A stretch of 64,000 nt of DNA from Candidatus Saccharimonadia bacterium (lineage in GTDB: Bacteria > Patescibacteriota > Saccharimonadia > Saccharimonadales > 2-12-FULL-41-12): NCBI GenBank assembly GCA_963717365.1, contig OY970327.1, positions 139,599 to 203,598 of the forward strand, in the 5' to 3' direction. Both the position numbers and the translations under genes were made by a program. Below, piece after piece: positions 10,094 to 35,582 of the stretch (its first letter is position 1; each line of letters begins with the position of its first letter). Under the pieces are notes generated by a model. It had not been told where the DNA came from and did no database searches. It saw nothing but the letters and a program-made list of their open reading frames with translations.

Positions 10094-10948
10094 CTAAGAA
10101 GTCTTAGCTACTCTATTCATCAGTGACCAAAACATAGATTGACTTTTACGGTGAGAATACCTAAATGCATATTCATCAGCGTAAGCTTGTAGGTATTTAG
10201 CGTCAACATGCCTGTAAACACCTTTAATTCCACGCTTCATATTTGACCAGAGGTTCTCAACGTTCTGTGTATGAATATCACCGTGTACGTACTCTCTGTA
10301 TGAATGACGGATTTTACCATGTGTGTAGCCATGTTCTGAAAGTTTGCGGTATGAGCGATGTTCATCACTGTAGATCGTAGATTTTTCTTTTACTCCTGCC
10401 CAAATTAGAGGAGTTAAGACTTTTTCTTTAGCACTTTCTACATGTCGTACTTTAGCCTTACCCTCACGCTGTACCATTCCAAAAACAACTTGGTTATTTC
10501 CTGCTTTAACAGTACTCCGCCTAGAAGTATCGCCACCTATATACATCTCATCGACCTCAACCTCACCGAAAAGGCTATCACTATCATCGCTCATCATAGA
10601 GCGTATCTGGTGAAACATTCTCCAAGCAGTCTTATAAGTAACTCCTAGTGTTCTCTCAAGCTGCTTAGCGCTAACACCCGAGCGTGTGGCCGACATAATG
10701 AATATTGCTTCAAACCACAGCGTGAGTGGCGTAGAGGACTTATGGAAGATTGTGCTAGCTGTAGGATGGACATGGTGACCGCATATTTCACAAGAATAGC
10801 TTTTGCGTGTCTTCATAGCGTGGTGCGGGGTTATTTTTTTACATTTAACACATTCTATTCCTTCGGGATATATATAGTTAACAAGCCACTCTAAACAAGC
10901 TTCATCACTAGGGAAGTCGGTTCCTAGGTCTTTAATCGTATACTTCAT
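10094..10948 (-). CDS. IS1595-family (ISXO2-like) transposase
   Basis: N-terminal zinc ribbon CVKCKK...CEICGH, then the DDE region with EVDEMYIGG, 284 aa. Terminal inverted repeats were not identified. Confidence 0.7.
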   Translation of the reverse strand: MKYTIKDLGTDFPSDEACLEWLVNYIYPEGIECVKCKKITPHHAMKTRKSYSCEICGHHVHPTASTIFHKSSTPLTLWFEAIFIMSATRSGVSAKQLERTLGVTYKTAWRMFHQIRSMMSDDSDSLFGEVEVDEMYIGGDTSRRSTVKAGNNQVVFGMVQREGKAKVRHVESAKEKVLTPLIWAGVKEKSTIYSDEHRSYRKLSEHGYTHGKIRHSYREYVHGDIHTQNVENLWSNMKRGIKGVYRHVDAKYLQAYADEYAFRYSHRKSQSMFWSLMNRVAKTS

Positions 10949-15234: not shown

Positions 15235-15567
15235 ATGGCACAAGGACACAATCCATAAGTATCAGTCGCACCAATTTCCCCAGAAGAAGTAACAAAGCTG
15301 CAAAAGGAATTACTACCAACTGAAGTCATAGAGACTTTCAATAGATTTATAGGCGAGACTGCCCTGAATGGCTACGCCGTAATACGGCAGGATGATGTAG
15401 TAAAAGAATTGGTCAAAAAAGGATTAAATCGGGGTGAAATTTATAAGAAGGGCTGGCTGAATATTGAAGAATTGTACATAGAAGCCGGCTGGAACGTAGA
15501 GTATGACAAGCCGGGCTATAACGAAACTTACCCCGCTACCTTCACCTTTAAAGCTCCTAGAAAATAG
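15235..15567 (+). pseudogene. Gene interrupted by an in-frame TAA at codon 8
   Basis: aaggag RBS, ATG at 15235, TAA at 15256-15258, then about 102 open codons in the same frame to TAG at 15565-15567. Confidence 0.5.
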
Positions 15568-15810
15568 CAAATGGAAATATATTGTATCCAATTTCTTACT
15601 TACAATAACAGTTAAGTCTGACTTACACTTTTACTCTGTTATATACTTGCAATATTATCCAATTTATGCTATCCTATATACTGCTTTGTAGCTTTTGCTT
15701 CAAATGCAACTTAAAAAGTAGGTAATCCAAGTTTTTTGCGCACTGATACCCGCGTACAACCCCCAACTTCGTAGTGCTCGCGCACCCAACGGCAACGTTA
15801 GGAGAAAGTG

Positions 15811-16368
15811 ATGGACGTACCGGAAGTACCGAAGTGGACGAAACGGCTGGCAGTCAAGATCGCCAAGTTCTTCATCCATATGACCATGAAGGTCAAGTGG
15901 CTGATCCTGGCGCTCTTTGTGACTCGCTTCGCCGCGGTCGTCATCTACCAGCCCATCGAGGACTGGAGCATGATCGACGCCTGGTGGTGGACGGAGGCTG
16001 CTTCGCAGACCATCGGCTACGGCGACGAAGCTCCTGCAACTGACCTCGGTCGCTTGCTGGCTGCTCCGTTCCACTACTTCTGGGTGTACTACACCGCACC
16101 GGCTCTGGTAGCCCACGTGGTGGCATACGTCTGGAAGAACAAGAACGAGTTCACCCATAACGAACAGGAGTGGTTGTTCAACACGATTGGCCGCATCTTC
16201 GAGTGGGTCCGCTGGCTGGTTCACGCCGTCCAGAAGATCGCCGAAGAGCGTGGCATCGTGCTTGACCCGCCGCCCAACGTCACGTCGGATGGCAGTCTCG
16301 AGACTCTCGCAGACCAAGCGCCCGACACTGACGACGGCAACCTCAACTTGCCGTATCCCGCCAAGTAG
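15811..16368 (+). CDS. Small potassium-channel protein (2-TM pore type), GC-rich block A
   Basis: Selectivity filter TIGYGD in WWWTEAASQTIGYGDEAP flanked by hydrophobic helices. aggaga RBS 5 nt before the ATG. Confidence 0.7.
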   Translation: MDVPEVPKWTKRLAVKIAKFFIHMTMKVKWLILALFVTRFAAVVIYQPIEDWSMIDAWWWTEAASQTIGYGDEAPATDLGRLLAAPFHYFWVYYTAPALVAHVVAYVWKNKNEFTHNEQEWLFNTIGRIFEWVRWLVHAVQKIAEERGIVLDPPPNVTSDGSLETLADQAPDTDDGNLNLPYPAK

Positions 16369-16426
16369 TTCCCCTCTCGTAACCACACCATCTACCCGGT
16401 TCATCTGAACCAGGAGGAGCACAAAC

Positions 16427-16768
16427 ATGCGTAAGTTCGGCATTTTCCTCGGCATCATCGTCATCCTGGCCATCATCGCCGCCATCGCTCTCGCCGCCAT
16501 GTCCAGTGGCATCAAGGGCACCGTCGTGGGCAAGACGTCCTCCAAGGGCACCGCCGTCTACAAGCAGAAGTGCAACAAGATGAAGGTCACGACGACCAAG
16601 AACGGCAAGAGGTCGACCAAGACCAAGAAGGTTTGCGGACCCAAGTCCTTCGCCGGCTACAAGACGAACTACCGGCTCCGCGTCAAGAACAAGAGCAAGG
16701 TCTCTACCGTCTCGGTCAGCCGCAGCACGTTCAACAAGAACCGCGTCGGGAGGAAGTACAAGAAGTAG
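16427..16768 (+). CDS. Small N-terminally membrane-anchored, Lys-rich protein, block A
   Basis: aggagg RBS, N-terminal TM segment, K-rich tail, G/C-ending codons. Confidence 0.5.
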   Translation: MRKFGIFLGIIVILAIIAAIALAAMSSGIKGTVVGKTSSKGTAVYKQKCNKMKVTTTKNGKRSTKTKKVCGPKSFAGYKTNYRLRVKNKSKVSTVSVSRSTFNKNRVGRKYKK

Positions 16769-16935
16769 CAACGCAGCAAGCTGGATCGCCAACTAAGTAG
16801 TCCTGACACAATCGGTGTCGGGCCGGCAGAGTGTCACAACATGAGCCCACGGACTCAAAGACACTCTGCCGAGGCAGGACTTTGTTAATTTGTTGATCCC
16901 CTGGATCCAAACCCAACTTACAAATTCCTGCCGCA

Positions 16936-16990
16936 TTTACCTACATAAATGTGTATTTATGCTGATGAGTCCAAAAGGACGAAAGGTAAA
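16936..16990 (+). ncRNA. Type III hammerhead ribozyme HHR1
   Basis: UUUACC-UA|CAUAAAU-GUGU-AUUUAUG-CUGAUGA-GUCC-AAAA-GGAC-GAA-A-GGUAAA. Predicted cleavage after 16943. Confidence 0.85.
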
Positions 16991-17028
16991 ATTACCAACA
17001 GAGTGTTCAATAAGGGGTTTATTTTTAT

Positions 17029-17080
17029 ACACTTTCGCCGTTTACGGCTCATCAGCATAGCTATAGTATCTATGGAGTGT
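17029..17080 (-). ncRNA. Type III hammerhead ribozyme HHR2 (divergent stems)
   Basis: Minus strand: ACAC-UC|CAUAGAUACUAUAGCUAUG-CUGAUGA-GCCG-UAAA-CGGC-GAA-A-GUGU. Stem I has one internal mismatch. Confidence 0.75.
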
Positions 17081-17260
17081 TGTACGGAAGAGCTGCATGT
17101 GTTTTTGTTGGTGGGTCGCTGGAATGCGATCCAAACACATGAGCCCTTCCGCAGGAGTTGATGGCTAACCTCCGAGCCAGTGTGATTTGTCTACTTCTCA
17201 GTAGAGAAGGACCTACTCACACGGTAGAATTTGTTGTACGTTATCCCGACTCAGACTGGA

Positions 17261-18340
17261 TCAGTCGAGGATGCGCGCTGCGTACAGGCCAGCCGGGACA
17301 TCCGGGTCATCCGCGTCGGGGACGAGCAGGACATCGATGCATCCCAGCGTGTGGTTGTACCGCGCGTCGACACCTTCGAGCTTGATGGACTGATCCTCAA
17401 GCGGTAGAAGCTTCACGAGGTTGCCCTCAGCGTCGATGACACCAACGATGCTGCCGGCGATCTGGCCCTTGATGGGTTCGAAATTCGCTTCGGCAGCTCC
17501 GGTGATGACCATGCGACCCTTGGGGTCCTCGTGCACCGAGTCGACATCGGTGAAATCCAGTTTCACCAAGTGACCTTCGTAGTCGGCGGAGCCGAGGTCG
17601 TACTGGCCGAGTTCTTCGAGCTCCAGCTGATCGATCTTGAGATCGGTGCAGAGACTCCACAGGAACTTGTCCAATGCGAGTCGGATCAGCATGTTCGGGG
17701 CAGGTGCACCGTCCTGGTCGAAGCTGTTGCCGCGCTGGGCGAGAACAAGCTGCGAGCCATGCACGGTGACTCCTTCGATGTTCAGCTCGCCGATGACGAT
17801 GTGCTCATCGAGGAACGTGTGCAGGCCTTCGAACGAGATCTTGGCGGGCAGGCCCCTGATGAGTCCGTTCTCGCCGAGCGAGTAGACCACACCAATCGAC
17901 CGGCGGACACCGCCCCAACTCATGCCACCCGATCCGACGATCAGGAGAAGGCCGTTCGGGAAACGTCTGGTCATCTCCATGCGAAGATTGCCATCGCTGA
18001 GGCGATTGATGTCGTCTCGCGTGATGATGGTCAGGGCCTCAAAATCGGCCTTGGCTTCGCTGCGTTCCCGGCCGCCAAGCGGCAGCACTTCGGGGATGAT
18101 GCGCTGCGCCGTGCCTGGCGACAGGATGTCGCGGTCTTCGCCGAGTCGCAATGCCTCTTGGACCTCTGTCCAGGCAATTGAAAACTCGGCCACCGCTGCC
18201 TGATCGTCACCGACCGAACGCAGAAGGCCCGATCGCGGCGACCATGCCACACCCGAGGCGGCTGACAGAAACGGCGGTTCGCCCGGATCCGGGTTAAGGA
18301 TGCGGTGCGTACCGAGTTGGATGAGTTTCAGCGATTGCAA
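17261..18340 (-). CDS. Hypothetical 359-aa protein, GC-rich block B
   Basis: TTG start preceded by aaggag-cacagc. G/C-ending codons. No family recognised. Confidence 0.6.
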   Translation of the reverse strand: MQSLKLIQLGTHRILNPDPGEPPFLSAASGVAWSPRSGLLRSVGDDQAAVAEFSIAWTEVQEALRLGEDRDILSPGTAQRIIPEVLPLGGRERSEAKADFEALTIITRDDINRLSDGNLRMEMTRRFPNGLLLIVGSGGMSWGGVRRSIGVVYSLGENGLIRGLPAKISFEGLHTFLDEHIVIGELNIEGVTVHGSQLVLAQRGNSFDQDGAPAPNMLIRLALDKFLWSLCTDLKIDQLELEELGQYDLGSADYEGHLVKLDFTDVDSVHEDPKGRMVITGAAEANFEPIKGQIAGSIVGVIDAEGNLVKLLPLEDQSIKLEGVDARYNHTLGCIDVLLVPDADDPDVPAGLYAARILD

Positions 18341-18403
18341 GCTGTGCTCCTTGATTGAGCGGGATAGGTACAGGAACTCTGCTTAGTGCAGCTCCATGAG
18401 AAA

Positions 18404-18432
18404 ATTATATAATTAAAGTGACTAAATATCAA
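18404..18432 (-). promoter_or_regulatory. Sigma70-like promoter facing block B
   Basis: Minus strand TTGATA, 17-nt spacer, TATAAT. Confidence 0.45.
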
Positions 18433-18469: not shown

Positions 18470-19144
18470 ATGCACAGTAATCTTGAACATCTGCGTGTTC
18501 GCCATAGTACACCAGTCGGCGATGAATTATTGGCAAATAACGAAGTCCTGCAAACAGCAATGGGCTTATTTGCTGCCGCGCAGGAGCCGCATAAGGCCCA
18601 TGTTCCGGGCTCAAGGTTGTTAGGAGCAGGCGAGTTTGGTTTTACTTTTGAGATTGGTGGTATAGCCGTAAAAATAAGCAGCCCTACTTCTAGTCAGAAG
18701 TCTTTTGATCTAGGAAGACCACTTCCTCCAGAAGACTTACGTAAACAATTCCTAACCTTAGCCGCATTAAGAGAACACCTGCAAGGCAAAGAAGAGGGTA
18801 TTGTGACACCTGAACAATACTTTGTAGCAACAACACCATATAAAGCGTTCATACTTGCCCAGGAGTATATGAATGGCTGGGTATCGTATGAAGATCGTAC
18901 TTCTCAGGTATTTGGACCTGCTGTAGAGACAAACGCTACCGACAGGCAAGAAATCGCCCAAGTCTCAGCTGGCATACGTCAACGAATTTTCCGTGCCCTT
19001 GGTGGTTTTGCTTTAATTAATAACATAAATGATCTTGCCTTACATAAAGAATCAGGCGTTCACGGCGGCAACCTGTTAGTACCTGAAACAGCTAATTTCG
19101 ATACGAATATGCCGCTTTGCATAATTGATCAACCGGCACCCTAA
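18470..19144 (+). CDS. Protein-kinase-like protein (possibly a pseudokinase), low GC
   Basis: Gly-loop plus Lys LLGAGEFGFTFEIGGIAVKI and hinge EYMNG. The catalytic loop reads HGGNLLV, lacking the usual Asp. Confidence 0.45.
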   Translation: MHSNLEHLRVRHSTPVGDELLANNEVLQTAMGLFAAAQEPHKAHVPGSRLLGAGEFGFTFEIGGIAVKISSPTSSQKSFDLGRPLPPEDLRKQFLTLAALREHLQGKEEGIVTPEQYFVATTPYKAFILAQEYMNGWVSYEDRTSQVFGPAVETNATDRQEIAQVSAGIRQRIFRALGGFALINNINDLALHKESGVHGGNLLVPETANFDTNMPLCIIDQPAP

Positions 19145-19171
19145 AAAATAAATATAGTCTATAAAATACTA

Positions 19172-19201
19172 TTGACTAAATAGTACTAATTATGATATAA
19201 T
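19172..19201 (+). promoter_or_regulatory. Sigma70-like promoter facing block C
   Basis: TTGACT, 18-nt spacer, TATAAT, ending 4 nt before the GC-rich DNA starts. Confidence 0.45.
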
Positions 19202-19241
19202 CTTGCCGTGCACCACTGTCCAACAAACAAGGGAGAAGCAC

Positions 19242-19700
19242 ATGTCGGAGCATCAGAGGCACTGCCCAGATTGCGGCACGCCCATGCAGAAGTACAAGGA
19301 ACGCGGTGAGACGGTGGATCGCTGCCCGCGCGATGGCATCATCGTGCTGGATCACGGCGAACTGCCGCGGATCATCGCGTCCGTCGCCAGCCAGCCCGGC
19401 TTCCGCCCGCCGCCCCCGCAGCAGGTGAAGCGACGCCCGTTCCGAGGTCTCGGCGCCGGTGTGTTCCACCACAGCTCGTCCTCGGACAAGCACTCGAGTG
19501 GCCATCACGCGCAGGTGTTCCACCACCACAGCTCGTCGGGCCACCAGGTCCATCACGCGCCGGTGTTCCACCACGTCACCTCGGACCACCACGGTCACCA
19601 CGGCTCGCACCACCACAAGTCCCACGACAGCATCTTCGAGGACATCTTCGAGGGCTCGGAGGACGACGGCGGCGGCTGGGAGGACTCGGGCGACGAGTAG
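19242..19700 (+). CDS. Zinc-ribbon (zf-TFIIB-like) protein with His-rich, acidic C-terminus, block C
   Basis: CPDCGTPM...DRCPRDGIIVLDHGEL, then repeated VFHH/HHxxSS/HGHHGSHHHKSH. gggaga RBS. Confidence 0.6.
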   Translation: MSEHQRHCPDCGTPMQKYKERGETVDRCPRDGIIVLDHGELPRIIASVASQPGFRPPPPQQVKRRPFRGLGAGVFHHSSSSDKHSSGHHAQVFHHHSSSGHQVHHAPVFHHVTSDHHGHHGSHHHKSHDSIFEDIFEGSEDDGGGWEDSGDE

Positions 19701-19731
19701 CGACGCAGGCAACAGCCTGATACTCCGCGCA

Positions 19732-19771
19732 GGGGGCACCAGATTGAGTGGTAACACTCGCTGGTGCCCCC
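19732..19771 (+). terminator. GC-rich hairpin without U-tract (high-GC-style terminator)
   Basis: gggggcaccag-(18 nt)-ctggtgccccc. Confidence 0.5.
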
Positions 19772-19848
19772 ATCGGAGGTAAGAAAAGTAAAATTTGTTG
19801 TCCTAAATTGACTCCCAACACATTTTTTACAATTCTTACCTCCACATA

Positions 19849-19899
19849 TGCCTTCATGAATGTGTATTCATGCTGATGAGTCCTAAAGGACGAAAGGCA
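19849..19899 (+). ncRNA. Type III hammerhead ribozyme HHR3
   Basis: UGCC-UU|CAUGAAU-GUGU-AUUCAUG-CUGAUGA-GUCC-UAAA-GGAC-GAA-A-GGCA. Predicted cleavage after 19854. Confidence 0.85.
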
Positions 19900-20011
19900 A
19901 TGTAAAAACTTTTTAAAACATGCTACTACATCAAATTGATTTAATCCGCTCATGCTTGCAATCTATACAAGCCAGGTGTTAAATATTCTTTTAAAAGGGA
20001 CAGCTACACGT

Positions 20012-20440
20012 ATGGCAAATTATGAAGTAACTGATTGTAAATCGATATATAAAATCGTGGAAGTGGCATATACCGATGGACTCGAAGGTAGCTACGAAAC
20101 ACCCCAAGAGACAACCGTATACAAAGTGGAGCCACCGTTTAATCCTGGCGAAGGTTTTACAAAACTGGCACTCGGTGCGTTCTCGTTAGTAACTACATAC
20201 CGTGGGTGCCCTGAGTTCACTCATCTGGCCACAACAGACGAGGCAACCTATTTTGTCTATCGAAACACCGAAGATAGGCCGACACTTCGGATCCTAAGCG
20301 ATAGTTTTCATCTGCAATTAAGTGAATTGCTCGGAAAAGTTAGCAATGATGACCATAAAATGAATACCCTTAGTCTTGCTACGATCGCCGCAAGCAGTGA
20401 AGTTAGTAACGGACGTCCACATATCTCTAGACGTTTCTAA
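20012..20440 (+). CDS. Hypothetical protein (low GC)
   Basis: ORF. ATG at 20012 preferred over the upstream start. Confidence 0.4.
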   Translation: MANYEVTDCKSIYKIVEVAYTDGLEGSYETPQETTVYKVEPPFNPGEGFTKLALGAFSLVTTYRGCPEFTHLATTDEATYFVYRNTEDRPTLRILSDSFHLQLSELLGKVSNDDHKMNTLSLATIAASSEVSNGRPHISRRF

Positions 20441-20506
20441 GTAACAATTCTATATTGACCGTAACAGTTAATAACTTATACTTTATGGTAACTAATAAGG
20501 ATTATT

Positions 20507-21133
20507 ATGGATCAAGATTTTAATAGACAAAAAGCAACGCCTTCAAGCGATGAACCGCCGAAGTATACTCCAGAATCTGCAGTAACCCCTTCCGTACCGC
20601 CCTCAAAGTCAAAATTTTCTGCAACACCAAAATCTAGTCGGCGAAAGGTTTTTGCAATAGTTATAAGCATAACGGTCCTTCTGGCATTAGTTGTTGCAGT
20701 CGCAAGTCTTGTTATGGCAAATAATAAAGCTGACAAGGCTCTCCTGACTGCACAGACAACTAAGTCAGAAGACTTGGAAAAACGCTTGTTGGCCATTGAG
20801 GAAGCAGAAGCCTATAGCGAGAAACAGATCAACCAGAACCAGAATCAGGCGGTATTCCTAGAAGGCGGCCAGGTTTACTTTGGCAAAATTACCGAAATTA
20901 CCAAAGATACCATGAAACTCAAGGATATTTACTATCTTAAAACCGGATCGGTTGATAAAACTGGAAATGTAGTTGGTGGCGCTGATGTCAGCTTAGTAAA
21001 ACTAGGCAATGAATTACATGGACCGGAAGATGCTATGATTATCGAGCGTAAAAATGTGACATTTTGGGAGAATTTGAAGGACGACGGGGAAGTATCCAAG
21101 GCGATTGCTGAATATAAAAAAGCCGGTAGGTAA
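20507..21133 (+). CDS. Membrane-anchored hypothetical protein (low GC)
   Basis: 208 aa with a single TM segment after a Pro/Ser-rich N-terminus. Confidence 0.5.
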   Translation: MDQDFNRQKATPSSDEPPKYTPESAVTPSVPPSKSKFSATPKSSRRKVFAIVISITVLLALVVAVASLVMANNKADKALLTAQTTKSEDLEKRLLAIEEAEAYSEKQINQNQNQAVFLEGGQVYFGKITEITKDTMKLKDIYYLKTGSVDKTGNVVGGADVSLVKLGNELHGPEDAMIIERKNVTFWENLKDDGEVSKAIAEYKKAGR

Positions 21134-21382
21134 TTCGTTAAAATATTTCAAGAATTTTTACAATAATAATTACTTTCACATAAGCATTTTACCCTTGTTA
21201 ACCTATATTTTATTAGCATATAAACATTTCATGTAATTATGTAGCTTTAACAACAAAAAACTGTTAAAATTTTATTAGCTCTCAGAAGCTAGAGGTGAGA
21301 CCTAGTTAACTCCTTGGTTTGTAATTCCTTGAGTGGAAGTATCTGAGTGCACATTAACACTCTAGTCGATTGGAGATCGACG

Positions 21383-22417
21383 ATGATGGCTAACGCCAAC
21401 ATTCCGCAGTTCCCGGTGAACGTGTTCACCCAGCGTGGCGAAACGGTCTACTCGCTCGTCATGAGCGCAAGCGACCTGGCGAAGTACGCCCGAGTCGAGC
21501 GGTACGAAGACACGTCTGACGGCGTCAATCGCAAGCTTGACGAGCGGCACGCCATGAGGATCGCCGAGTACATGCTCGAGCCCAAGGCTGTCATGTTGGA
21601 CGCCATCTGCGGCGACCTGCGTGGCGACTGGCAGATCATCAACAACATGCTGGTCGGCGACGAGGACTCCTACCTGTCGATCGACGATGGCCAGCACCGG
21701 TGGTGGGCAGTAACCAACCTGTTGGTCCCGGAAGAGCGTTCGCGGTGGTCATTCCCGACCGTTGCGACGATGGGTCTCGACTACGAGACTCGCATGGCCA
21801 TCTTCCTGCAGCAGTCGCAGCGGAAGTCGGTCGACAGCAAGCTCAGCCTGGCCATGAAGCACGAACTGGGTCGCTGGAACAACGATGCCGAGCGCGAGTC
21901 CTACACCCTCCTGCTGGCGCTGAACTCCGAGACTGGCTCGCCCCTCCAGGGCAAGATCATCCTCGGAGAGACGCTCCGGCGTTCCTACGAGTCCAGGTAC
22001 CGTCCCGAGGGCATTAACGCCAACGGACTGTGGAACACGCTTCGGTCCGTCATGGGCTCGAAGTCGCCACTGGCGCAGCTGTCCATGGAGAAGCGGATCG
22101 AAGTCGTCCGCAACATCATCTGGGTGGCAAAGGAGACGTGGCCAAAGGACTGGGAGTCTGACCACAGCATCCTGACGACAGCACGGGGGATCAACTCGAT
22201 CATCACGATGATCAGACGGAGGCCGTCGGAGTTCCAGGTCGCCATCAACAACGACTTCAGCATCGACAACCTGCGTCGCGTGTTCCGCTACGCCAAGTCG
22301 TTCAAGTGGCACGCCAACGAGCACAAGAACGCCAGCGACAAGACCATCACCGAGGCGCTCGACAAGGCCATCGGTGCCGGTATGAGGCGTGACAGAAGCG
22401 TTCAGCTCGTCGCGTAA
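21383..22417 (+). CDS. DGQHR-domain (DndB-like, ParB/Srx-fold) protein, block D
   Basis: Literal DGQHRWWA motif. ggaga RBS before ATGATG. Confidence 0.7.
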   Translation: MMANANIPQFPVNVFTQRGETVYSLVMSASDLAKYARVERYEDTSDGVNRKLDERHAMRIAEYMLEPKAVMLDAICGDLRGDWQIINNMLVGDEDSYLSIDDGQHRWWAVTNLLVPEERSRWSFPTVATMGLDYETRMAIFLQQSQRKSVDSKLSLAMKHELGRWNNDAERESYTLLLALNSETGSPLQGKIILGETLRRSYESRYRPEGINANGLWNTLRSVMGSKSPLAQLSMEKRIEVVRNIIWVAKETWPKDWESDHSILTTARGINSIITMIRRRPSEFQVAINNDFSIDNLRRVFRYAKSFKWHANEHKNASDKTITEALDKAIGAGMRRDRSVQLVA

Positions 22418-22495
22418 TCCCAAACGCACTAGTACGGCACCTTCCTTCACGGATGAAGTAAGGTGTCTGTACTAGGGCATGAAAGAGGTAACTCT

Positions 22496-23800
22496 ATGGA
22501 GGAAACCAACGGAAAGGTGATGGCACGAAACTGGTTCTACCAGGATTACCTGCCATCCATCTTGAGCCCGCGGTCGCTTCGCGCGAGTAACTACCTCGTT
22601 CTACTTGGGGAAGACTTTCGCGAACTGCCGCTCTTTGAAGAGCTGGAGGTCCCACTGTACCGGATTTTCTCGGTAGAGAATGACCAAAAGATCTTCGCTC
22701 GTCAGCGTGCTCACGCTCGCCGCGAGGAACTGGATGTAGTCCTGCATCACGGTGCGCTCTCTGAGTACATCCAGGACTACCTCATGACCGACCACCGGAT
22801 CTCGGTGTTCAACCTAGATATCTGTGGCTCATACTTGAAGGGGATTGACCCAGTTCTTGGGAAACTCCTGCTGTTTGCCCGGCGCAATCCGAGCACAATT
22901 ATGGCCACCTACTCGAGCGCCGCCCGAGATCGTCCGCAGCTCATGGAAGGGCTGAAATCACTCGTGGTACTTCTCTGGCTTGCTCCGGAGGTGATCGACC
23001 GCTTGGTACGGCATCTGTACAGCCAGTATCGGACGGCGTCACTTTCGGATAGAGAACGGAGCAGGGACGAAGTCAGCGTCAATATGCTGCTTCGGCACCT
23101 GTTCTGGATGAGAAGTCACATGGAACACATCCTTGTCGGATCGTATACGTTGGGCATGACGTCCTACGAAACGCTCTGCCGGGTGATGACAGACCAGAAT
23201 AAGGTCTGGGAGGAGTTCCTGGCGGACGCCACATTCCCGTTGACGTACGAAGCGGTTGTGGAATGGATCCTGAGAAAGAAAGAACCCGATCTCAGGAAGG
23301 TCAGGATGGATGTCTCCTTCGGGGACGTGCAATTCCTGACCTATGCCGCCAATAGCGGTTTCTACCAGAACTGCTACTTCGCCACCTACGAGCATGACGG
23401 GTCAACCCTGTCGCTCAGTAACTGGCTGGTCGAATCGGCCAAGAACCTCCGTACCAACCGCATTGTCATCGTTGACACTAACGGTGAGCAGTACCCGACG
23501 ACCTTTGGTCGGATTGCGGTTGACACCGACAAAGCGGTGCTCTGGAGCAAGAATGATCTGACATCCGACCTACGTAATGTGGCAATTCCGCCTTCCTCCG
23601 TTCAGGAGCGCGTGGCAGATGAGTCACAAAACGGAGTGTCGAATGACATCATGGAGCTGACACCCGAAACGATCGAGCAGATTCATAAGCTCGCCCGTCT
23701 TGGACTGAACTCCAGGGAAATTAGCGAGAAACTCTCGCTGAAGCTTCCGATGCCACGGATCACTGCCCAGGTCGCTCTGGCCCGGAGAAAATCTCCATAG
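22496..23800 (+). CDS. Hypothetical partner protein with C-terminal HTH, block D
   Basis: About 434 aa. C-terminus IEQIHKLARLGLNSREISEKLSL resembles an HTH. The start could instead be 22463. Confidence 0.55.
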   Translation: MEETNGKVMARNWFYQDYLPSILSPRSLRASNYLVLLGEDFRELPLFEELEVPLYRIFSVENDQKIFARQRAHARREELDVVLHHGALSEYIQDYLMTDHRISVFNLDICGSYLKGIDPVLGKLLLFARRNPSTIMATYSSAARDRPQLMEGLKSLVVLLWLAPEVIDRLVRHLYSQYRTASLSDRERSRDEVSVNMLLRHLFWMRSHMEHILVGSYTLGMTSYETLCRVMTDQNKVWEEFLADATFPLTYEAVVEWILRKKEPDLRKVRMDVSFGDVQFLTYAANSGFYQNCYFATYEHDGSTLSLSNWLVESAKNLRTNRIVIVDTNGEQYPTTFGRIAVDTDKAVLWSKNDLTSDLRNVAIPPSSVQERVADESQNGVSNDIMELTPETIEQIHKLARLGLNSREISEKLSLKLPMPRITAQVALARRKSP

Positions 23801-23930
23801 ACAGGAGGTGTTAAGAAAACCCGCTACCCGTAACGGAAGCAACAAGGCACAAAGGGGCAAATGAGGACATGCCTACAACCTCCCGGGTGGAACAAGTTGA
23901 GCTATACGCTCCTTTTCCATCCGGTCCCTC

Positions 23931-23983
23931 GAATTTCGTAAAGTGTGTACTTTACCTGATGAGTCCAAAAGGACGAAAAATTC
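23931..23983 (+). ncRNA. Type III hammerhead ribozyme HHR4
   Basis: GAAUU-UC|GUAAAGU-GUGU-ACUUUAC-CUGAUGA-GUCC-AAAA-GGAC-GAA-A-AAUUC. Predicted cleavage after 23937. Confidence 0.85.
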
Positions 23984-24023
23984 CGCCCCAAGAAGCTTTT
24001 ACTATTACATCTATACTATACTA

Positions 24024-24052
24024 TTGACAATATAACTAAAATTTGCTATAAT
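24024..24052 (+). promoter_or_regulatory. Consensus sigma70 promoter
   Basis: TTGACA, 17-nt spacer, TATAAT, 40 nt after HHR4. Confidence 0.55.
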
Positions 24053-24159
24053 TATCAAATAAATCGCTCATGTTTATAGCGGGGCCTTTTAATGCAAGTT
24101 ATAATACATAGCGAAGGTATATATGAAATATAAATCCTTCAACAGAGTAAAACACCTAA

Positions 24160-28282: not shown

Positions 28283-28350
28283 TAAATTCGGGGGTTACTG
28301 GGGGATGACTTAATTTGGTGGCTGGATTGCCAGAAAAAAAGTCACCCCCC
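28283..28350 (-). repeat. Conserved hairpin element, copy 1 (3' of the vWA gene); left arm of an inverted pair
   Basis: Minus strand GGGGGGUGACUU...AAGUCAUCCCCC-AGUAACCCCCGAAUUUA, which aligns with 30110-30181. Confidence 0.6.
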
Positions 28351-28402
28351 ATGGGTTGTTGTTGGGACCCCGTGAGGGATCTCGTAATGCTGTTGTGCCT
28401 GG

Positions 28403-29224
28403 TTAGGCGGCGATGAGACCCTTCTGCTTGGCCGCCGCGAGATACGTTGGTACCTCGTCGAGCATGGCCTCGTAGAAGGCATTGTCCGACGTGCCGCCGA
28501 GCGATGCGAGCTGCTTGGCATCGACGTTGTCGATCAGGCGTCCGCCCTTGTCGTAGTCGACTCCGACCGGAATGTCGTCGTCGAGCGACTCCAGGTAGGC
28601 CCAGCCGCCGCGGTCGTTGCCGACGAAGATGAACTTCAGGAAGACCGCTCGGTAGCTGAGACGACGGATGACGTCGGTGGCTGCGTTCCGATCGTTGGGA
28701 GAGCCATCGGTGACGATGGTCACGAACGCCGGCGTCTGCATCGGTTTGATGGAGGGCTTGGGAGCTCCGCCACCGCGCTTCATGAAGCCACCGCCGCCGT
28801 TGGCGAAGAGGTCGCCGTTGCCGGTGATCTCCGCGACATGCTTCAGGGCGAGGGCCAGATCGGTCGAGCCGCGGGCGGTGATGCCGCTGCGCTTGACGTA
28901 CTGGTGGAAGTCGGTCAGCTTGACCAGCTTCTCCTCGATCTGATGGTCGAAGAAGATCGTTGGTACCTCGCCGTCGTCATCGACGATGACGGAGAAACCG
29001 AGCGTCCGGTCGACCGCGTCCTGTACGCTGCCGTCGCGGTACTCGTGGCTCATGGAGCCCGAGCGGTCGACGACGAGGATGCACTGCCACGCCTGGTTCG
29101 GGTTGACCTTGTTGGTCAGCATCACCTGGATGGCTGCGTTGACCTTCTTGGTCATCAAACCGCCGGTGTTCTGCTGGGCGTCAGCCGCGGCTGCCTTCTC
29201 TTTGATCGTCTTCATGTTGGCCAT
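28403..29224 (-). CDS. vWA-domain protein, TerY-like, block E
   Basis: MIDAS motif VVDRSGSMS. gaggag RBS before the ATG at 29224. Confidence 0.7.
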   Translation of the reverse strand: MANMKTIKEKAAAADAQQNTGGLMTKKVNAAIQVMLTNKVNPNQAWQCILVVDRSGSMSHEYRDGSVQDAVDRTLGFSVIVDDDGEVPTIFFDHQIEEKLVKLTDFHQYVKRSGITARGSTDLALALKHVAEITGNGDLFANGGGGFMKRGGGAPKPSIKPMQTPAFVTIVTDGSPNDRNAATDVIRRLSYRAVFLKFIFVGNDRGGWAYLESLDDDIPVGVDYDKGGRLIDNVDAKQLASLGGTSDNAFYEAMLDEVPTYLAAAKQKGLIAA

Positions 29225-29414
29225 GTGAATGGCTCCTCTCGACTTGGGAAACAGGTACAATTGTATGGATATTACCAACAACAATCTGTAAAATAACATA
29301 AACTAAGATAAATTACAATAATGTGTGAAAATGCTTGTAAAATATATAAAATAGTGTAAAATACCATTTGTATTCAGCATCCCGCTGCTTACAAAACAAA
29401 GGGGACAGATCTAC

Positions 29415-30041
29415 ATGTCACTCCAGACGAAGAAGATCCCGCTCGCCCAGGGCGACACCAAGGCACTCCCGACCAACAAGGGTCAGGTCTTCACCGCCGG
29501 TGTCGGCTGGGATCCCGCCGCGGGCCAGGACACGGTCGACCTCGACCTCTGGCTGATCCGGACGCAGAGCGACGGCAACGTCGAGTGCGCCTTCTGGGGC
29601 AACCAGAAGTGGCAGCGTCCCGATCTGGGCACCAACGGCTCCGGCAGCCCCTACATCGCGTCCCCCGAGGGAGACGTGGTCCACAAGGGCGACGACCTGA
29701 CCGGTGCCGAGTCGGACACGGGTTACGACGAGACCATCGCCCTCGACCTGTCGAAGGCGCCGGCCACCGTGACTCAGTACGCGCTGTTCGCCACGATCTA
29801 CAGCGACGCGAACGACAAGACGCTCGGCATGGCCACCAACGTCATCTGCGGCGTCAAGGAGGAGAACTCGGGCAACGAGTACACCACCGAGCTCGCCGAC
29901 GATCACGGCTTCGACCTCTCGGTCCTCATCTGCACCATCGACAACGTCGACGGCAAGTGGAAGATGACCAACAAGGACGAGGGCTACGACGACCCGATGC
30001 CGGAGATCGCCAAGAAGCTGGGCGTGGTCGGCTTCCCGTAG
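29415..30041 (+). CDS. terD: TerD-domain stress protein, block E
   Basis: GVGWD, DLDLWL, HKGDDLTGAESDTGYDETIALDL, GKWKM...GYDD. Collinear with the TerD family pattern. Confidence 0.8.
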   Translation: MSLQTKKIPLAQGDTKALPTNKGQVFTAGVGWDPAAGQDTVDLDLWLIRTQSDGNVECAFWGNQKWQRPDLGTNGSGSPYIASPEGDVVHKGDDLTGAESDTGYDETIALDLSKAPATVTQYALFATIYSDANDKTLGMATNVICGVKEENSGNEYTTELADDHGFDLSVLICTIDNVDGKWKMTNKDEGYDDPMPEIAKKLGVVGFP

Positions 30042-30109
30042 GGACGCAAGCGCTTCAGGTCTCCTGAAGAACTGCGGCGCCCTCGGTAGCTGACAAGTTC
30101 TGTCTCCTA

Positions 30110-30181
30110 GGGGGATGACTTATTTTTTTGGCCTTTCAGCCACCAATCTAAGTCATCCCCCGCTACCACCCCACGAATTTA
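30110..30181 (+). repeat. Conserved hairpin element, copy 2 (3' of terD); right arm of the inverted pair
   Basis: GGGGGAUGACUUA-(26 nt containing UGGC-N6-GCCA)-UAAGUCAUCCCCC-GCUACCACCCCACGAAUUUA. Confidence 0.6.
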
Positions 30182-30401
30182 TTCATTAATATTGATAATA
30201 TTACAAAAATACGGTACAATATCTCATGTGTGCCGTATTTTTTATGTGCACGTACCTTAACAGTGTGAGTAATAAACTACGTTTGTTGAGGAGGGTAAGC
30301 ACTTGCTATTGAGTAATATCAACTGCTTACCCTTTCCAAACTAGACAAATCTTTCTCTGACTTTCCATCTGAAGCAACGACCCAAAAGGAGCGCAGTTCC
30401 T

Positions 30402-31481
30402 GTGAGAAGCACCCTTTGGAAGTACTACAAGTACGACGTGCTGTTTGCCCTCGTGGTCACGATCGCGATCGGCTGGCAGTATGGCCTCCTGGCTGTACTC
30501 ACGTTGGGACTCGTTTCCGCCTTGGAGATCACTCTCTCTGGTGACAACGCGGTCGTCAACGCCCGAGTACTGGCCAAGATGAGCCCGTTCTGGCAGAAGA
30601 TGTTCATCACCATCGGCTACCTCATCGCCGTCGTTGGCATGCGGTTCGTCTTCCCAATCCTGATCGTGTCGCTGACCGCCGGACTTGGCTTCACCGAAGT
30701 CATCAACCTGGCATTCACCGACGTCGACACGTACGGAGACAAGCTGCATGACGCGCACGGCGAGATCGCCATGCTCGGCGGCATCTTCCTGTTGCTGGTC
30801 TTCCTGAACTACATGTTCGAAGAGAAGGAGACCACGTGGCTGGGACCGCTTGAGCGTCTGCTCGCACGCGGCGGCAAGCACGACAGTCTGTCGTACTTGA
30901 TCGCTGCGGTAGCGATTCTGGTGCTCAGCGCAACGCTCGGTGCAGACAAGCAGTATCCCGTGATGTTCGCTGGTTTCATCAGCTTGGCCGCCTTCATGGC
31001 AGTCAACATCTTCGCCGCGGCTTTCGAGCCAGAAGACGACGACGATGACATCGAGACGGTCAAGAGCAAGGTCGTTCAGAGGACGGGCATGGCGGCTTTC
31101 GGGCTGTTCATGTACCTGGAGTTTCAGGATGCTTCGTTCTCGTTCGACGGCGTGTCTGGCGCGTTCGCCATCACCGACAACATCGTCCTGATCACCGCTG
31201 GCCTGGCCATCGGCGCTCTGGCGGTTCGCTCGATGACGCTGCACCTGCTGCACACCAACAAGCTGGCCGAGTTCAAGTACCTCGAGCACGGCGCGCACTG
31301 GGCCATCGGCTCACTCGCCGTTTGTCAGCTGCTGACGATCCATTACCCGATCCCCGAGCCCCTCACCGGACTCATCGGCATCGTGTTCATCGGTCTCGCC
31401 ATCTGGTGGAGCAAGCGGGAAGAGAAGAAGGAAGCAGCCGAGCTGGCAGCAACTCCCGACCTGATGGTCGAGAAGGACTAG
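30402..31481 (+). CDS. DUF475 / TerC-like integral membrane protein, block F
   Basis: LEITLSGDNAVVNA and LEFQDASFSFDGVSGAFAIT paired motifs, multi-TM. Confidence 0.7.
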   Translation: MRSTLWKYYKYDVLFALVVTIAIGWQYGLLAVLTLGLVSALEITLSGDNAVVNARVLAKMSPFWQKMFITIGYLIAVVGMRFVFPILIVSLTAGLGFTEVINLAFTDVDTYGDKLHDAHGEIAMLGGIFLLLVFLNYMFEEKETTWLGPLERLLARGGKHDSLSYLIAAVAILVLSATLGADKQYPVMFAGFISLAAFMAVNIFAAAFEPEDDDDDIETVKSKVVQRTGMAAFGLFMYLEFQDASFSFDGVSGAFAITDNIVLITAGLAIGALAVRSMTLHLLHTNKLAEFKYLEHGAHWAIGSLAVCQLLTIHYPIPEPLTGLIGIVFIGLAIWWSKREEKKEAAELAATPDLMVEKD

Positions 31482-31508
31482 CCAGCCGCGGCTGACGAAA
31501 AGTGATGA

Positions 31509-31547
31509 GGGTGTGGTCTCTAATGCTCCGCAAAGGAGACCACACCC
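31509..31547 (+). terminator. GC-rich hairpin terminator
   Basis: gggtgtggtctc-(15 nt)-gagaccacaccc, flanked by gaaaag/cttttc. Confidence 0.5.
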
Positions 31548-31610
31548 CGCGCTTTTCGCCTTCTCAATTTTACTCACACTGTTATCTACCACCTTATTAC
31601 AACTAGTATC

Positions 31611-35488: not shown

Positions 35489-35520
35489 CTCTCTCCTCTG
35501 TGGGGAAAAATACCTTTAAT

Positions 35521-35549: not shown

Positions 35550-35582
35550 GTAAGTATAATATTATATTTTTTAGCCATTATT

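Follow-up and report, generated by a model that had tools for sequence, protein, structure and literature searches.

Morons, as described in phages (Juhala/Hendrix 2000, summarized in PMC4378225), are units in which a promoter and a 3' signal accompany a single gene or a small number of genes of odd base composition, and the mechanism of their acquisition is still called mysterious. Prophages also carry clustered hammerhead ribozymes that flank single variable genes, and these ribozymes were proposed to process long transcripts into gene-length RNAs (Perreault et al. 2011, PMC3088659). Bacteria are known to have hundreds of hammerhead ribozymes, whose role has been unclear since 2011. In the present study, we analyzed a 64-kb stretch of DNA (the window) in which hammerhead ribozymes are tied to swapped genes. 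We consider it fairly likely that the GC-rich blocks of the window are moron-like, self-contained DNA expression cassettes, often with ribozyme 3' ends, that are gained, lost, and swapped among related ultra-small bacteria, and that their setting is a hypervariable island (approximately 15.7-37.1 kb) of a Saccharibacteria chromosome.

The island and its GC-rich blocks

Judged from its sequence, the window looks like part of the chromosome of a member of Saccharibacteria (Patescibacteria) with a GC content of approximately 44%. Its 933-aa DUF87/TrwB-type ATPase shared 72-73% identity with genes of two Saccharibacteria loci (L008 and L009), synteny with L075 extended over three genes, and an identical copy of the DndB-like protein was encoded on a 1.19-Mb contig. 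Core chromosome genes flank the island. Two-state GC segmentation of the window revealed nine sharply edged blocks of 58-66% GC against a background of 41-45% GC, and all nine were located within 15738-37108. The GC content at third codon positions (GC3) was 0.69-0.94 in the blocks versus 0.34-0.48 in the backbone.

A Pfam scan of approximately 65 ORFs identified an IS1595 transposase (10094-10948) as the sole recombination-type enzyme. It also revealed a Ter-type stress cluster, in which TerD, TerC/DUF475, vWA-TerF, two PRTase_3 genes, and a HAD gene are co-located; the same Ter gene set is carried by L119, L122, and the P0010 context. Within the island, PHROGs gave no phage structural or replication matches and one family of unknown function for the ATPase, while PADLOC gave only weak mads/HerA matches, for the ATPase and the methyltransferase. 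A megablast search of 19000-24000 against phage records gave no match. An identity as a defense island or a prophage was backed by neither PADLOC nor PHROGs. Type IV secretion coupling proteins are among the members of the family to which the ATPase of the island belongs.

The features of the blocks are as follows. R1 is a ribozyme model built from 129 relatives, and L205 is a related locus.

15738-16878, plus strand: cassette A, with a K+-channel-like gene (15811-16368), a gene for a small Lys-rich membrane protein (16427-16768), and a stem-loop (16817-16880)
16928-16994, plus strand: hammerhead a, 76.1 bits (model R1), 50 nt past cassette A
17023-17090, minus strand: hammerhead b, 55.6 bits (model R1), after cassette B and converging on hammerhead a
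17245-18432, minus strand: cassette B, with promoter TTGATA-17-TATAAT (18432-18404), GC-rich DNA from approximately 18395, and a DUF6910/DUF6929 gene (18340-17261)
19172-19901, plus strand: cassette C with its ribozyme, made up of the next seven features
19172-19201, plus strand: predicted promoter, TTGACT (19172-19177), 18-nt spacer with TG, TATAAT (19196-19201), 11/12 consensus
19205-19779: block C, 66.1% GC
19205-19241, plus strand: GC-rich 5' leader, 57% GC, with the RBS GGGAGA at 19231-19236
19242-19700, plus strand: gene of 152 aa, GC3 0.89, stop codon ending at 19700
19723-19778 (core 19732-19771), plus strand: GC-rich stem-loop, -39.2 kcal/mol
19775-19843, plus strand: AT-rich spacer from stem-loop to ribozyme, 30% GC, with a 24-nt inverted repeat (I12)
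19847-19901, plus strand: hammerhead c, type III, predicted cut after U19854, 34.3 bits (Rfam) and 73.3 bits (model R1), with covariation
21221-24153, plus strand: cassette D in the extent common to L205, from a conserved leader to the leader of the next gene
21383-22417 and 22496-23800, plus strand: cassette D genes, DndB-like and 434 aa, respectively
23922-23988, plus strand: hammerhead d, 66.1 bits (model R1), followed by a perfect-consensus promoter (24024-24052)
28290-29265, minus strand: cassette E, with a vWA-TerF-like gene (29226-28403) and a 3' hairpin element (28290-28345)
29335-30171, plus strand: cassette F, with a weak promoter (29335-29362), the TerD gene (29415-30041, GC3 0.94), and a 52-nt hairpin (30110-30161)
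30192-31584, plus strand: unit G, with a promoter (30192-30220), a leader, a DUF475/TerC gene (30402-31481), a GC stem-loop, and a 5'/3' inverted repeat (30258-30272 with 31570-31584)
34814-35550, minus strand: cassette H, with a -10-like promoter (approximately 35550-35522) and a methyltransferase gene (35488-34814)
35578-35644, minus strand: hammerhead e, 78.4 bits (model R1), 114 nt beyond cassette I and ahead of the methyltransferase promoter
35758-37145, minus strand: cassette I, with a lipoprotein gene (37145-36702) and a gene for a secreted Pro-rich protein (36784-35984)

The DNA around the cassette C promoter (19140-19204) has a GC content of 17%. The GC-rich leader begins 4 nt past the -10 hexamer, approximately at the predicted transcription start, and 37 nt ahead of the ATG (19242). 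The tail of the stem-loop is GUAAGAAAAG; hence, it has no U tract. The preliminary description of this DNA had listed these elements, namely, an AT-rich promoter ending at 19201, GC-rich DNA from 19205 with its own RBS, a U-less GC hairpin, and a hammerhead behind it in AT-rich DNA, and all of them were confirmed. The encoded protein has an N-terminal zinc ribbon (Pfam Zn_ribbon_TFIIB, 3.6e-07), a Pro-rich linker, His/Ser-rich repeats, and an acidic tail. An exact-protein look-up of this product found none.

The preliminary description had also placed the starts of the other blocks approximately 25-100 nt upstream of the first start codon. The GC-rich leaders of A (73 nt), B (55 nt), E (30 nt), F (39 nt), and G (27 nt) agreed with this range and that of H was 20 nt, all approximate values, whereas the leaders of D and I were longer and of mixed composition. 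At the other end, the blocks stopped soon after a GC-rich hairpin, as described: the GC-rich 3' flanks of 58-226 nt contain stem-loops, and no U tract accompanies the stem-loops in A, B, C, D, F, and I. The 226-nt tail of cassette I is non-coding, with 56% GC and a stem-loop. Past its genes, the cassette D segment contains a 3' untranslated region, hammerhead d, and then the promoter of the next gene with its leader. In cassette H, the GC-rich DNA stops at the stop codon (GC edge at 34823 versus a stop codon at 34814-34816) and a native PRTase gene lies 59 nt further, which bears out the earlier view that this block is trimmed. The low-GC spacer noted between the divergent vWA and TerD genes was likewise found (29290-29385, 24% GC). 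The 52-nt hairpin of cassette F resembles that 3' of the vWA gene; this common hairpin was absent from all fetched loci.

A 20-kb scan detected 48 promoter-like sites versus 21.5 +/- 5.1 in shuffles. The predicted promoters of B and C are strong (11/12 consensus), and those of the other blocks are weaker. Two observations count against reading the blocks as cassettes: GC-rich DNA starts right at a strong -10 hexamer in B and C only, and the leaders of A, D, G, and I are 55-240 nt long and mixed in composition. The claim that the block limits are transcript-like stood in part: the limits match expression units, and the starts of A, D, G, and I are not those of transcription.

Ribozymes behind the blocks

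Model R1 had five matches in the 64 kb, all within the island. Each of the five follows a GC block of its own strand at a distance of 50-155 nt. Under random placement, the chance of all five falling in 170-nt same-strand zones is approximately (9x170/128000)^5, or approximately 2e-10. Hammerheads a and b oppose each other between convergent units, and d and e are located upstream of the next promoter. However, four of the nine blocks (E, F, G, and H) have no hammerhead, which counts against the cassette reading.

All five copies contain the core CUGAUGA and GAAA, in agreement with the type III pattern CUGANGA ... GAAA, and three helices surround the core, with helix III open as in type III and backed by covariation. 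Across the 129 family members, 95.3% of cells pair versus 31-45% in slid controls, and the covariation score was 0.72 versus 0.05-0.10. Helix I (columns 30-34 with 49-53) and helix III together have ten pairs, of which nine changed on both sides and eight displayed all four Watson-Crick types. Helix II is uninformative because it was fixed by the search pattern. The A15.1-U16.1 pair is U-A in 123 of the 129 sequences and in every window copy, and the cleavage-site nucleotide 17 is not G (U, A, C, C, and C across the five). With the Rfam Hammerhead_3 model, which expects a longer helix II loop, the copies scored 22-34 bits, below the gathering threshold of 48.5 bits. At gathering thresholds, Rfam identified five tRNAs only, and the hammerheads emerged only at relaxed E-values. 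The five window RNAs are predicted type III hammerhead ribozymes, for which self-cleavage is predicted.

The main matches to the hammerhead core pattern were genomes of Patescibacteria and Saccharibacteria. At 102 hammerhead sites in other Patescibacteria genomes, the GC content was 0.515 upstream versus 0.463 downstream (Wilcoxon p = 4.8e-8). This excess persisted at loci that were already GC-rich (+2.7 points, n = 13), a persistence that random foreign origin would not predict. The same-strand ORFs upstream of the ribozyme belong to no common family. L147 contains the same GC-rich gene and ribozyme unit, and the architecture of the window recurred in 78 viral contigs and, beyond L205, in about 100 metagenome-assembled genomes; in the viral contigs, the same ribozyme family forms one-strand arrays with a spacing of about 956 nt. 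A general tie of hammerheads to the DUF87/TrwB-type ATPase gene was rejected because, among 80 loci with a related gene, a strict pattern detected only one hammerhead. A full-text literature search retrieved no study that connects hammerheads with Patescibacteria, CPR, or Saccharibacteria. The link of the ribozyme to GC-rich upstream genes and the co-exchange of gene and ribozyme were not found in the searched literature.

A full cassette begins with a predicted AT-rich promoter of the sigma-70 type, continues with a short GC-rich leader that contains an RBS, and has one or two high-GC3 genes, followed by a U-less GC-rich stem-loop, an AT-rich spacer, a type III hammerhead, and then the promoter of the next unit. 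RNA polymerase may read through the U-less stem-loop, and the hammerhead would cut the read-through RNA just beyond the cassette. The stem-loop may then stop 3' exonucleases, and that of cassette C is proposed to guard the 3' end of its mRNA. The downstream or convergent unit would thereby escape sense or antisense read-through. DNA uptake and recombination may be the vehicle, and recombination may be anchored in conserved flanks, for which the neighboring DUF87/TrwB-type ATPase gene, promoters of similar sequence, and the ribozyme itself are examples.

Exchange between relatives and the origin of the blocks

L205, which is from a different sequencing run, shares the mosaic of the window at 88% identity. 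It matched 21221-24153 at 80-100% per 60-nt window. The left edge of this segment is at a promoter, and its right side passes the ribozyme and the next promoter up to the next start codon. The dS of the block D segment was 0.35-0.38, whereas the flanking backbone genes were saturated (pS 0.78-0.79). The data support the conclusion that block D and its flanks were exchanged far more recently than the backbone diverged. L205 also contains a cassette X (about 2335-3985) consisting of a promoter, a 449-aa GC-rich gene, a hairpin, and a degenerate hammerhead. Its site in the window is a 78-nt spacer between the bb208 gene and block D; cassette X, like a moron, thus separates genes that are neighbors in a relative. 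L205 lacks the A-C region of the window, and L206 retains both D genes (D1 and D2) and the hammerhead with different neighbors. The suggestion in the preliminary description that cassette-type units were moved was borne out because the differences between L205 and the window consist of whole units from promoter to ribozyme. A single indel and a single exchanged segment, both involving L205, show that units were gained, lost, and exchanged by related genomes after backbone divergence. When locus pairs with a common gene upstream of the ribozyme were compared, no clear sign of mobility emerged.

Since Saccharibacteria live on Actinobacteria and take up DNA, the blocks may have come recently and directly from a high-GC host, with deletion bias trimming the fragments to the useful gene. 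Every named DUF475 match was from Actinobacteria, a 217-nt stretch of the DUF475 gene was 76% identical to a Nocardia replicon, and a high GC content extends to the non-coding leaders and tails of the blocks. The codon usage of the block genes (CTC approximately equal to CTG, GTC above GTG, ATC 90%, AAG 93%, third-position C 0.48 and G 0.34) is of the actinobacterial kind. U-less stem-loops are common in actinobacterial genomes. Nevertheless, we regard direct host uptake as rather unlikely. The preliminary description had assumed a high-GC donor; however, no close one was found for blocks C, D, F, and G in the very large collections searched. The cassette C protein had a single weak homologue, the DndB-like family of block D had 75 members, and TerD (block F) had nothing above 57% identity among 1.84 billion representatives. 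A plasmid tblastn search gave identities of at most 31% for TerD and 30% for DUF6910. The DUF475 protein (block G) shared only 44-50% identity with named Actinobacteria versus 53-60% with its closest relatives, which occur in Ter clusters on hammerhead-bearing contigs (L119, L120, and L122) and in P0010 with a gene like that for the 933-aa ATPase. D and G also share conserved AT-rich leaders, untranslated-region pairing, and ribozymes with other Patescibacteria. The block proteins have the amino acid make-up of the backbone (G+A+R+P 0.22-0.29), and GC3 alone differs. Actinobacterial host DNA was dropped as the main reading because the nearest relatives of D and G sit in the same kind of genome (Patescibacteria-type contexts) and the amino acid composition is backbone-like.

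Alternatively, the genes may be long-term residents whose GC3 is kept high by gene-specific mRNA or codon selection, or by GC-biased gene conversion in recombining cassettes. This has a small but appreciable chance of being correct: the GC difference is almost wholly at third positions, the GC excess keeps its direction in hosts that are themselves GC-rich, and the DUF475 unit has conserved AT-rich flanks with compensatory change. In the distant clusters of L119 and L122, GC3 was 0.60-0.74 for TerD, vWA, TelA, and DUF475 versus 0.28-0.36 for the PRTases and HAD. Across three lineages, GC3 was 0.83-0.90 for D1 and 0.62-0.74 for D2, with D1 above D2 by about 0.17-0.21 in all three genomes; gene-specific selection could explain these D1/D2 and Ter patterns as well as repeated recent arrival. 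However, leaders and 3' tails without codon periodicity are also GC-rich, such as that after cassette I, whereas the spacer between the stem-loop and ribozyme of block C has 30% GC despite belonging to the same short unit. G-ending NCG codons are enriched, which indicates a composition bias rather than translational choice. The idea that high GC3 reflects high expression was weakened by L026, in which GroEL has a GC3 of 0.60 versus 0.84 for the gene upstream of the ribozyme. The presence or absence of cassettes between close relatives also argues against long residence. Under the exchange of cassettes among relatives, the GC-rich composition seems to be a property of the cassette pool, and the cassettes probably came in recently from Patescibacteria of higher GC content, or from mobile elements of these, and are now drifting towards the resident composition. 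The GC3 of the D copies was lower in the window than in L205 (0.87 versus 0.90 and 0.69 versus 0.74), as was that of the backbone (0.38-0.46 versus 0.55-0.61), which is consistent with such drift. A point against recent arrival is that no higher-GC genome holding these cassettes was found.

The preliminary description had raised RNA-mediated capture, in which an mRNA is reverse-transcribed and inserted, or RNAs are joined at hammerhead ends and then copied into DNA, with block boundaries as true transcript ends. The GC-rich DNA of B and C begins 4-9 nt after the -10 hexamer, approximately at the transcription start, the block ends are preceded by a stem-loop, and the segment shared with L205 has its left edge at a promoter. 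Hammerhead cleavage is, moreover, chemically reversible. However, the promoter itself is inside the L205 indel, the shared segment outruns the ribozyme to include the next promoter and its leader, and the 5' edge is the promoter of the recipient rather than a demonstrable donor start site. The incomplete fit of A, D, G, and I to transcription starts also argues against it. Poly(A) tracts and target duplications were not seen, and the enzyme check suggested earlier detected no reverse transcriptase, RtcB or LigT-type enzyme, or site-specific recombinase among the approximately 65 ORFs of the window. RNA-mediated capture is thus unsupported, and we regard it as highly improbable. The expression unit is what selection keeps and passes on; therefore, boundaries may resemble those of transcripts, and an RNA intermediate is not required.

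An artifact, either a chimeric assembly or an engineered construct with codon-optimized genes and ribozyme insulators, is almost inconceivable. Consensus promoters and ribozymes are parts used in synthetic circuits, and the difference between blocks and backbone is mainly synonymous, as in recoded genes. However, a 14-kb contig from run ERR12037361 has the same gene order, although this run may share data with the genome assembly, and L205 presents the same mosaic in a different run. In a check for vector or synthetic sequences, 15000-38000 had no near-identical DNA among PLSDB plasmids, a database that need not hold cloning vectors or synthetic parts. The architecture in L205, the other genomes, and the viral contigs refutes the earlier suggestion of deliberate engineering. 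We also considered an undescribed cassette system of Patescibacteria in which promoter-to-hammerhead units circulate, their GC-rich, host-like codon use is actively maintained, and the ribozyme (or promoter-ribozyme pair) aids capture or exchange as a portable homology arm or via RNA ends. This appears quite unlikely; in a bolder form, the genes would be tuned for expression in a high-GC host cell after transfer.

Relation to described systems

The exchange of cassettes among relatives joins two loose ends, the function of hammerheads and the acquisition of morons. The ribozyme consistently marks the 3' end of exchanged, compositionally foreign accessory genes, both in a major uncultured bacterial group and in phages, and gives a simple sequence tag for recently exchanged Patescibacteria genes. 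It would also have a testable role in the 3'-end formation of imported cassettes and the insulation of their neighbors. The puzzle is a resident-like protein make-up with 70-94% GC at third positions and no donor in public data. The cassettes bear on how gene content is renewed in reduced epibiotic genomes.

Integron cassettes are also single-gene units with a structured 3' element in arrays that vary between relatives. However, no IntI-type integrase was found in the window, and the window cassettes carry their own predicted promoters, lie on both strands, and are interleaved with resident genes. Retrozymes and processed retrogenes share a hammerhead at the unit boundary and transcript-end-like boundaries. 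In contrast to retrozymes, the window units have one 3' ribozyme and no flanking direct hammerhead repeats; they also include promoters, and no reverse transcriptase was found in the window. RiboJ-type synthetic insulators similarly place a self-cleaving ribozyme between transcription units and uncouple downstream RNA from its upstream context, whereas the window ribozymes are natural, divergent, and covary across hundreds of genomes, and precede the next promoter instead of lying between promoter and RBS.

As in the hammerhead clusters of prophages, several ribozymes lie within a few kb and flank single genes or short blocks of varying identity, and the family also forms arrays in viral contigs. 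The window family differs in being type III and spread through Patescibacteria chromosomes, and each of its ribozymes follows a unit with its own predicted promoter. The likeness to phage morons consists of one or a few genes with a predicted promoter and a 3' signal, placed between genes that are adjacent in relatives, and a base composition, most clearly in GC3, unlike that of the neighbors. In contrast to phage morons, the window cassettes are in a chromosomal island without recognizable phage genes, and their compositional contrast is extreme and always towards GC. Furthermore, where a moron has its own factor-independent terminator, the window cassettes have a U-less stem-loop, which is followed by a hammerhead after five of the nine blocks.

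GC-rich blocks and hammerhead ribozymes

Two-state GC segmentation delimited nine blocks of 58–66% GC, all within 15738–37108, in a window background of 41–45% GC: A (K+-channel-like), B (DUF6910/DUF6929), C (zinc ribbon), D (the DndB-like gene D1 and the 434-aa gene D2), E (vWA-TerF-like), F (TerD), G (DUF475/TerC), H (methyltransferase), and I (lipoprotein and secreted Pro-rich protein). A covariance model built from 129 hammerhead family members was searched over the 64 kb and detected exactly five type III hammerheads (55–78 bits), all within the island (approximately 15.7–37.1 kb). Each is located 50–155 nt downstream of a GC-rich block, on the same strand as the block:

16928–16994, +, hammerhead a, after block A
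17090–17023, −, hammerhead b, after block B
19839–19905, +, hammerhead c, after block C
23922–23988, +, hammerhead d, after block D
35644–35578, −, hammerhead e, after block I

These copies score below the Rfam gathering score. Across the 129 family sequences, 95.3% of cells pair (31–45% in slid controls), the covariation score is 0.72 (0.05–0.10 in slid controls), 9 of the 10 pairs of helices I and III show both-sided changes, most with all four Watson-Crick pair types, and the U16.1-A15.1 pair is present in 123. We concluded from these sequence comparisons that the family is a real, selected ribozyme. Hammerheads d and e are upstream of the next unit's promoter, and a and b are oriented towards each other where two units converge; each ribozyme is therefore part of the 3′ end of the unit that precedes it.

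Block C has the following layout, with a 30% GC spacer between the stem-loop and hammerhead c (19847–19901 in this reading):

19172–19201, +, predicted promoter (TTGACT, 18-nt spacer with TG, TATAAT) in 17% GC DNA
19205, +, start of GC-rich DNA
19231–19236, +, GGGAGA ribosome-binding site
19242–19700, +, coding sequence, zinc ribbon (Pfam, 3.6e-07) and His-rich tail
19723–19778, +, stem-loop without a U tract (−39.2 kcal/mol)

This agrees base for base with the promoter, GC onset, ribosome-binding site, U-less hairpin, and hammerhead of the preliminary description, which also proposed transcript-like boundaries for the blocks in general. The latter proposal stood in part. GC-rich leaders of approximately 20–73 nt, each with a ribosome-binding site, are present in A, B, C, E, F, G, and H, and the GC-rich 3′ tails (58–226 nt) contain stem-loops. 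As described previously, the GC-rich DNA of the methyltransferase block ends at the stop codon, and AT-rich DNA (21–24% GC) separates the divergent vWA and TerD genes. However, GC-rich DNA begins 4–9 nt past a strong −10 hexamer only in B and C; in F and H, it starts 14–15 nt past weaker −10 hexamers, and the leaders of A, D, G, and I are 55–240 nt in length with a mixed composition. The block observation is real and well beyond chance.

Other features of the island were noted. The block C gene contains imperfect 32–34-nt repeats, 48–54 nt apart (19461–19583, +), encoding His/Ser-rich units (VFHHHSSS...), and its protein, which ends in an acidic C-terminal tail, may bind metal. Three perfect 12/12 TTGACA-17-TATAAT promoters are present (24024–24052, +; 32091–32119, +; 32000–31972, −), two of which form a 34-nt inverted repeat (24022–24055 and 31969–32002). 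The promoters of cassettes A and I (15642–15671 and 37393–37422) are 83% alike over 30 nt and bracket the entire island.

The link between ribozyme and GC content extends to other genomes. At 102 usable hammerhead sites, mean GC was 51.5% in the 540 nt upstream of the ribozyme, 46.3% downstream, and 46.2% in whole loci; upstream exceeded downstream in 76 of the 102 (Wilcoxon p = 4.8e-8). The nearest same-strand ORF upstream is usually 60–180 nt away, often with a GC3 of 0.7–0.96, and the proteins of these ORFs share no common family. Members of this ribozyme family were also found in 78 IMG/VR contigs (141 model matches), often in one-strand arrays with a spacing of approximately 956 nt, and the upstream GC excess is smaller there (+2.5 points, p = 9e-6). 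Some of these loci (L220, L249, L263, L217, L234, and others) are phage-sized viral contigs of 35–65 kb and approximately 40% GC, carrying three to five hammerheads of the family on one strand approximately 1 kb apart.

Exchange of block D between relatives

Locus L205 is a close relative sequenced in a different run, and the proteins of its block D genes are 90% identical to those of the window. The nucleotide match is 0.8–1.0 per 60 nt from approximately 21221, just past the −10 hexamer of a promoter, to approximately 24153. This stretch spans the AT-rich leader, both D genes, hammerhead d (97%), and the promoter and leader of the next gene, and identity falls at that gene's start codon. In the D genes, dS is 0.35–0.38, whereas flanking backbone genes are saturated at synonymous sites (pS 0.78–0.79). 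At the position of a 78-nt spacer in the window, L205 contains an additional unit made up of a promoter, a 449-aa gene (64–66% GC), a hairpin, and a degenerate hammerhead; it has no counterpart of the window A–C region. D1, D2, and the hammerhead also stay together in L206 (61% protein identity), where the neighbours differ. These comparisons indicate that whole expression units, including the ribozyme, differ between these relatives and were exchanged.

The degenerate hammerhead of L205 (3892–3954, 20 bits), with U apparently in place of A15.1, is probably an inactive or decaying copy. A leader of approximately 110 nt before the DndB-like gene is kept across 61% protein divergence (window 21275–21385, L205 4090–4195, L206 1915–2013). 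The leader is predicted to fold into a long CTCAGA/TCTGAG stem and a last hairpin over the ribosome-binding site, and it may be a cis-regulatory RNA, for which the three sequences give weak covariation evidence. At the left island edge, 15236–15567 (+) matches the end of a gene that is intact in L205 (L205 3–329) at 77% identity; early stop codons interrupt the frame in the window, and, thus, it is probably a decayed gene.

Host chromosome, Ter genes, and origin of the GC-rich DNA

Several lines of evidence point to a Saccharibacteria (Patescibacteria) chromosome. In a pattern scan of a genome collection, the hammerhead core matched mostly in Patescibacteria genomes, Saccharibacteria foremost. 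The 933-aa DUF87/TrwB-type ATPase, whose family includes type IV secretion coupling proteins, matches genes in loci L008 and L009 of Saccharibacteria at 72–73% identity, and three genes at 45952–49813 share synteny with L075, also a Saccharibacteria locus. The DndB-like product has an identical counterpart on a 1,191,543-bp contig, and the stretch at 42–64 kb has the ordinary gene content of a core chromosome (LigA, Mur ligase, Ddl, LeuRS, NusB, and RNase III, the last at 62655–63377). The D-Ala-D-Ala ligase gene is split into overlapping ORFs (56532–57233 and 57226–57702, +), the first encoding the N-terminal half and part of the C domain and the second the remaining C domain, which could be a frameshift, pseudogene, or sequencing error. 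Genes for tRNA-Leu(CAG), tRNA-Cys, and tRNA-Leu(UAA) occupy 42455–44389, and an HNH endonuclease gene (43700–44296) sits between the latter two. Its homologue in a relative (L125) is near that locus's own DUF87/TrwB-type ATPase gene, which indicates that approximately 17 kb of the window is variable between the two.

Homologue searches of C, D, TerD, and DUF475 gave no nameable high-GC donor. The block C protein has one weak homologue, and the block D (DndB-like) family has 75 members. The best TerD identity was 57% among 1.84 billion representatives, and at most 31% to plasmid TerDs. DUF475 is 53–60% identical to Ter-cluster homologues on contigs with the same hammerhead (L119, L120, L122) or with a window-like DUF87/TrwB-type ATPase gene (P0010), versus only 44–50% to named Actinobacteria.

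Block and backbone genes differ almost solely at third codon positions (GC3 0.69–0.94 vs. 0.34–0.48); the two sets of genes resemble each other at first and second positions and in amino-acid composition. Block codon use is of a high-GC kind, with C exceeding G at third positions. One puzzle is that non-coding leaders and tails within the blocks share the GC richness, which argues against codon selection alone. The GC3 of D1 is 0.87 in the window, 0.90 in L205, and 0.83 in L206; the window D copies are slightly below those of L205, and the backbone differs in the same direction. We tentatively infer that the cassettes came recently from a Patescibacteria pool of higher GC and are drifting to the resident composition. 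A further puzzle is that genes with high GC3 in the window also have it in distant lineages: D1 in the three genomes above, and the Ter genes of L119 and L122, where GC3 is 0.60–0.74 against 0.28–0.36 in PRTase and HAD genes.

Distant Ter clusters (L119, L120, L122, L204, and the P0010 context) show the same split as window 28.4–34.8 kb, with TerD, vWA-TerF, TelA, and DUF475 GC3-rich and two PRTase_3 genes and HAD AT-rich, at only 24–59% protein identity; L119, L120, and L122 also have a hammerhead downstream of TelA. In the window, the AT-rich flanks of the DUF475/TerC gene carry the two arms of a 15-nt inverted repeat (30258–30272, TAACAGTGTGAGTAA; 31570–31584, TTACTCACACTGTTA), which is conserved in homologous units (L204, L119, L120, L122), with a compensatory change in L119 and L122 (A to G in one arm, T to C in the other) and a T run after the repeat in the relatives. 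The 5′ and 3′ untranslated regions may thus pair with each other, which could serve RNase III processing or protect the ends. A hairpin element of approximately 50 nt (GGGGGATGACTTA ... TAAGTCATCCCCC, −28.9 kcal/mol) ends the vWA (28290–28345, −) and TerD (30110–30171, +) genes. Its copies, which are 80% alike, enclose the divergent pair as a long inverted repeat; it matched no Rfam family and was absent from all 284 fetched loci.

Routes of acquisition and known systems

The preliminary description proposed RNA-mediated capture, cassette-type capture, or deliberate engineering. The last is refuted by the same mosaic in an independent run at 88% identity and by the recurrence of the architecture in approximately 100 other genomes and viral contigs; PLSDB plasmids, which need not include cloning vectors, showed no near-identical DNA. 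RNA-mediated capture is unsupported: promoters lie within both the L205 indel and the exchanged segment, and reverse transcriptase, RtcB, and site-specific recombinases were absent from the window ORFs scanned. Those ORFs did include an HNH endonuclease and an IS1595-family (ISXO2-like) DDE transposase (10094–10948, −). The transposase, which carries an N-terminal zinc ribbon, was the sole recombination-type enzyme that the window yielded. Cassette-type exchange is supported by the whole expression units that differ between relatives, and it probably proceeds via DNA uptake and recombination anchored in conserved flanks.

The arrangement offers a testable role for the ribozyme. Polymerase would run through the U-less stem-loop, the hammerhead would cleave the read-through RNA (e.g., after U19854), and the stem-loop would halt 3′ exonucleases. 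The next unit would then begin at its own promoter without read-through, and antisense RNA would be avoided at convergent pairs.

The closest known concept for the cassettes is the phage moron, which comprises a promoter, gene, and 3′ signal, differs in composition from its neighbours, and has an unexplained mode of acquisition (PMC4378225). Unlike morons, the cassettes have a stem-loop and a ribozyme as their 3′ signal and are located in a chromosome. Clustered prophage hammerheads flank single genes or short blocks of varying identity (Perreault et al. 2011, PMC3088659), which is the ribozyme-gene arrangement found here. The present finding is a variant of these two known systems and bears an unexplained compositional signature.
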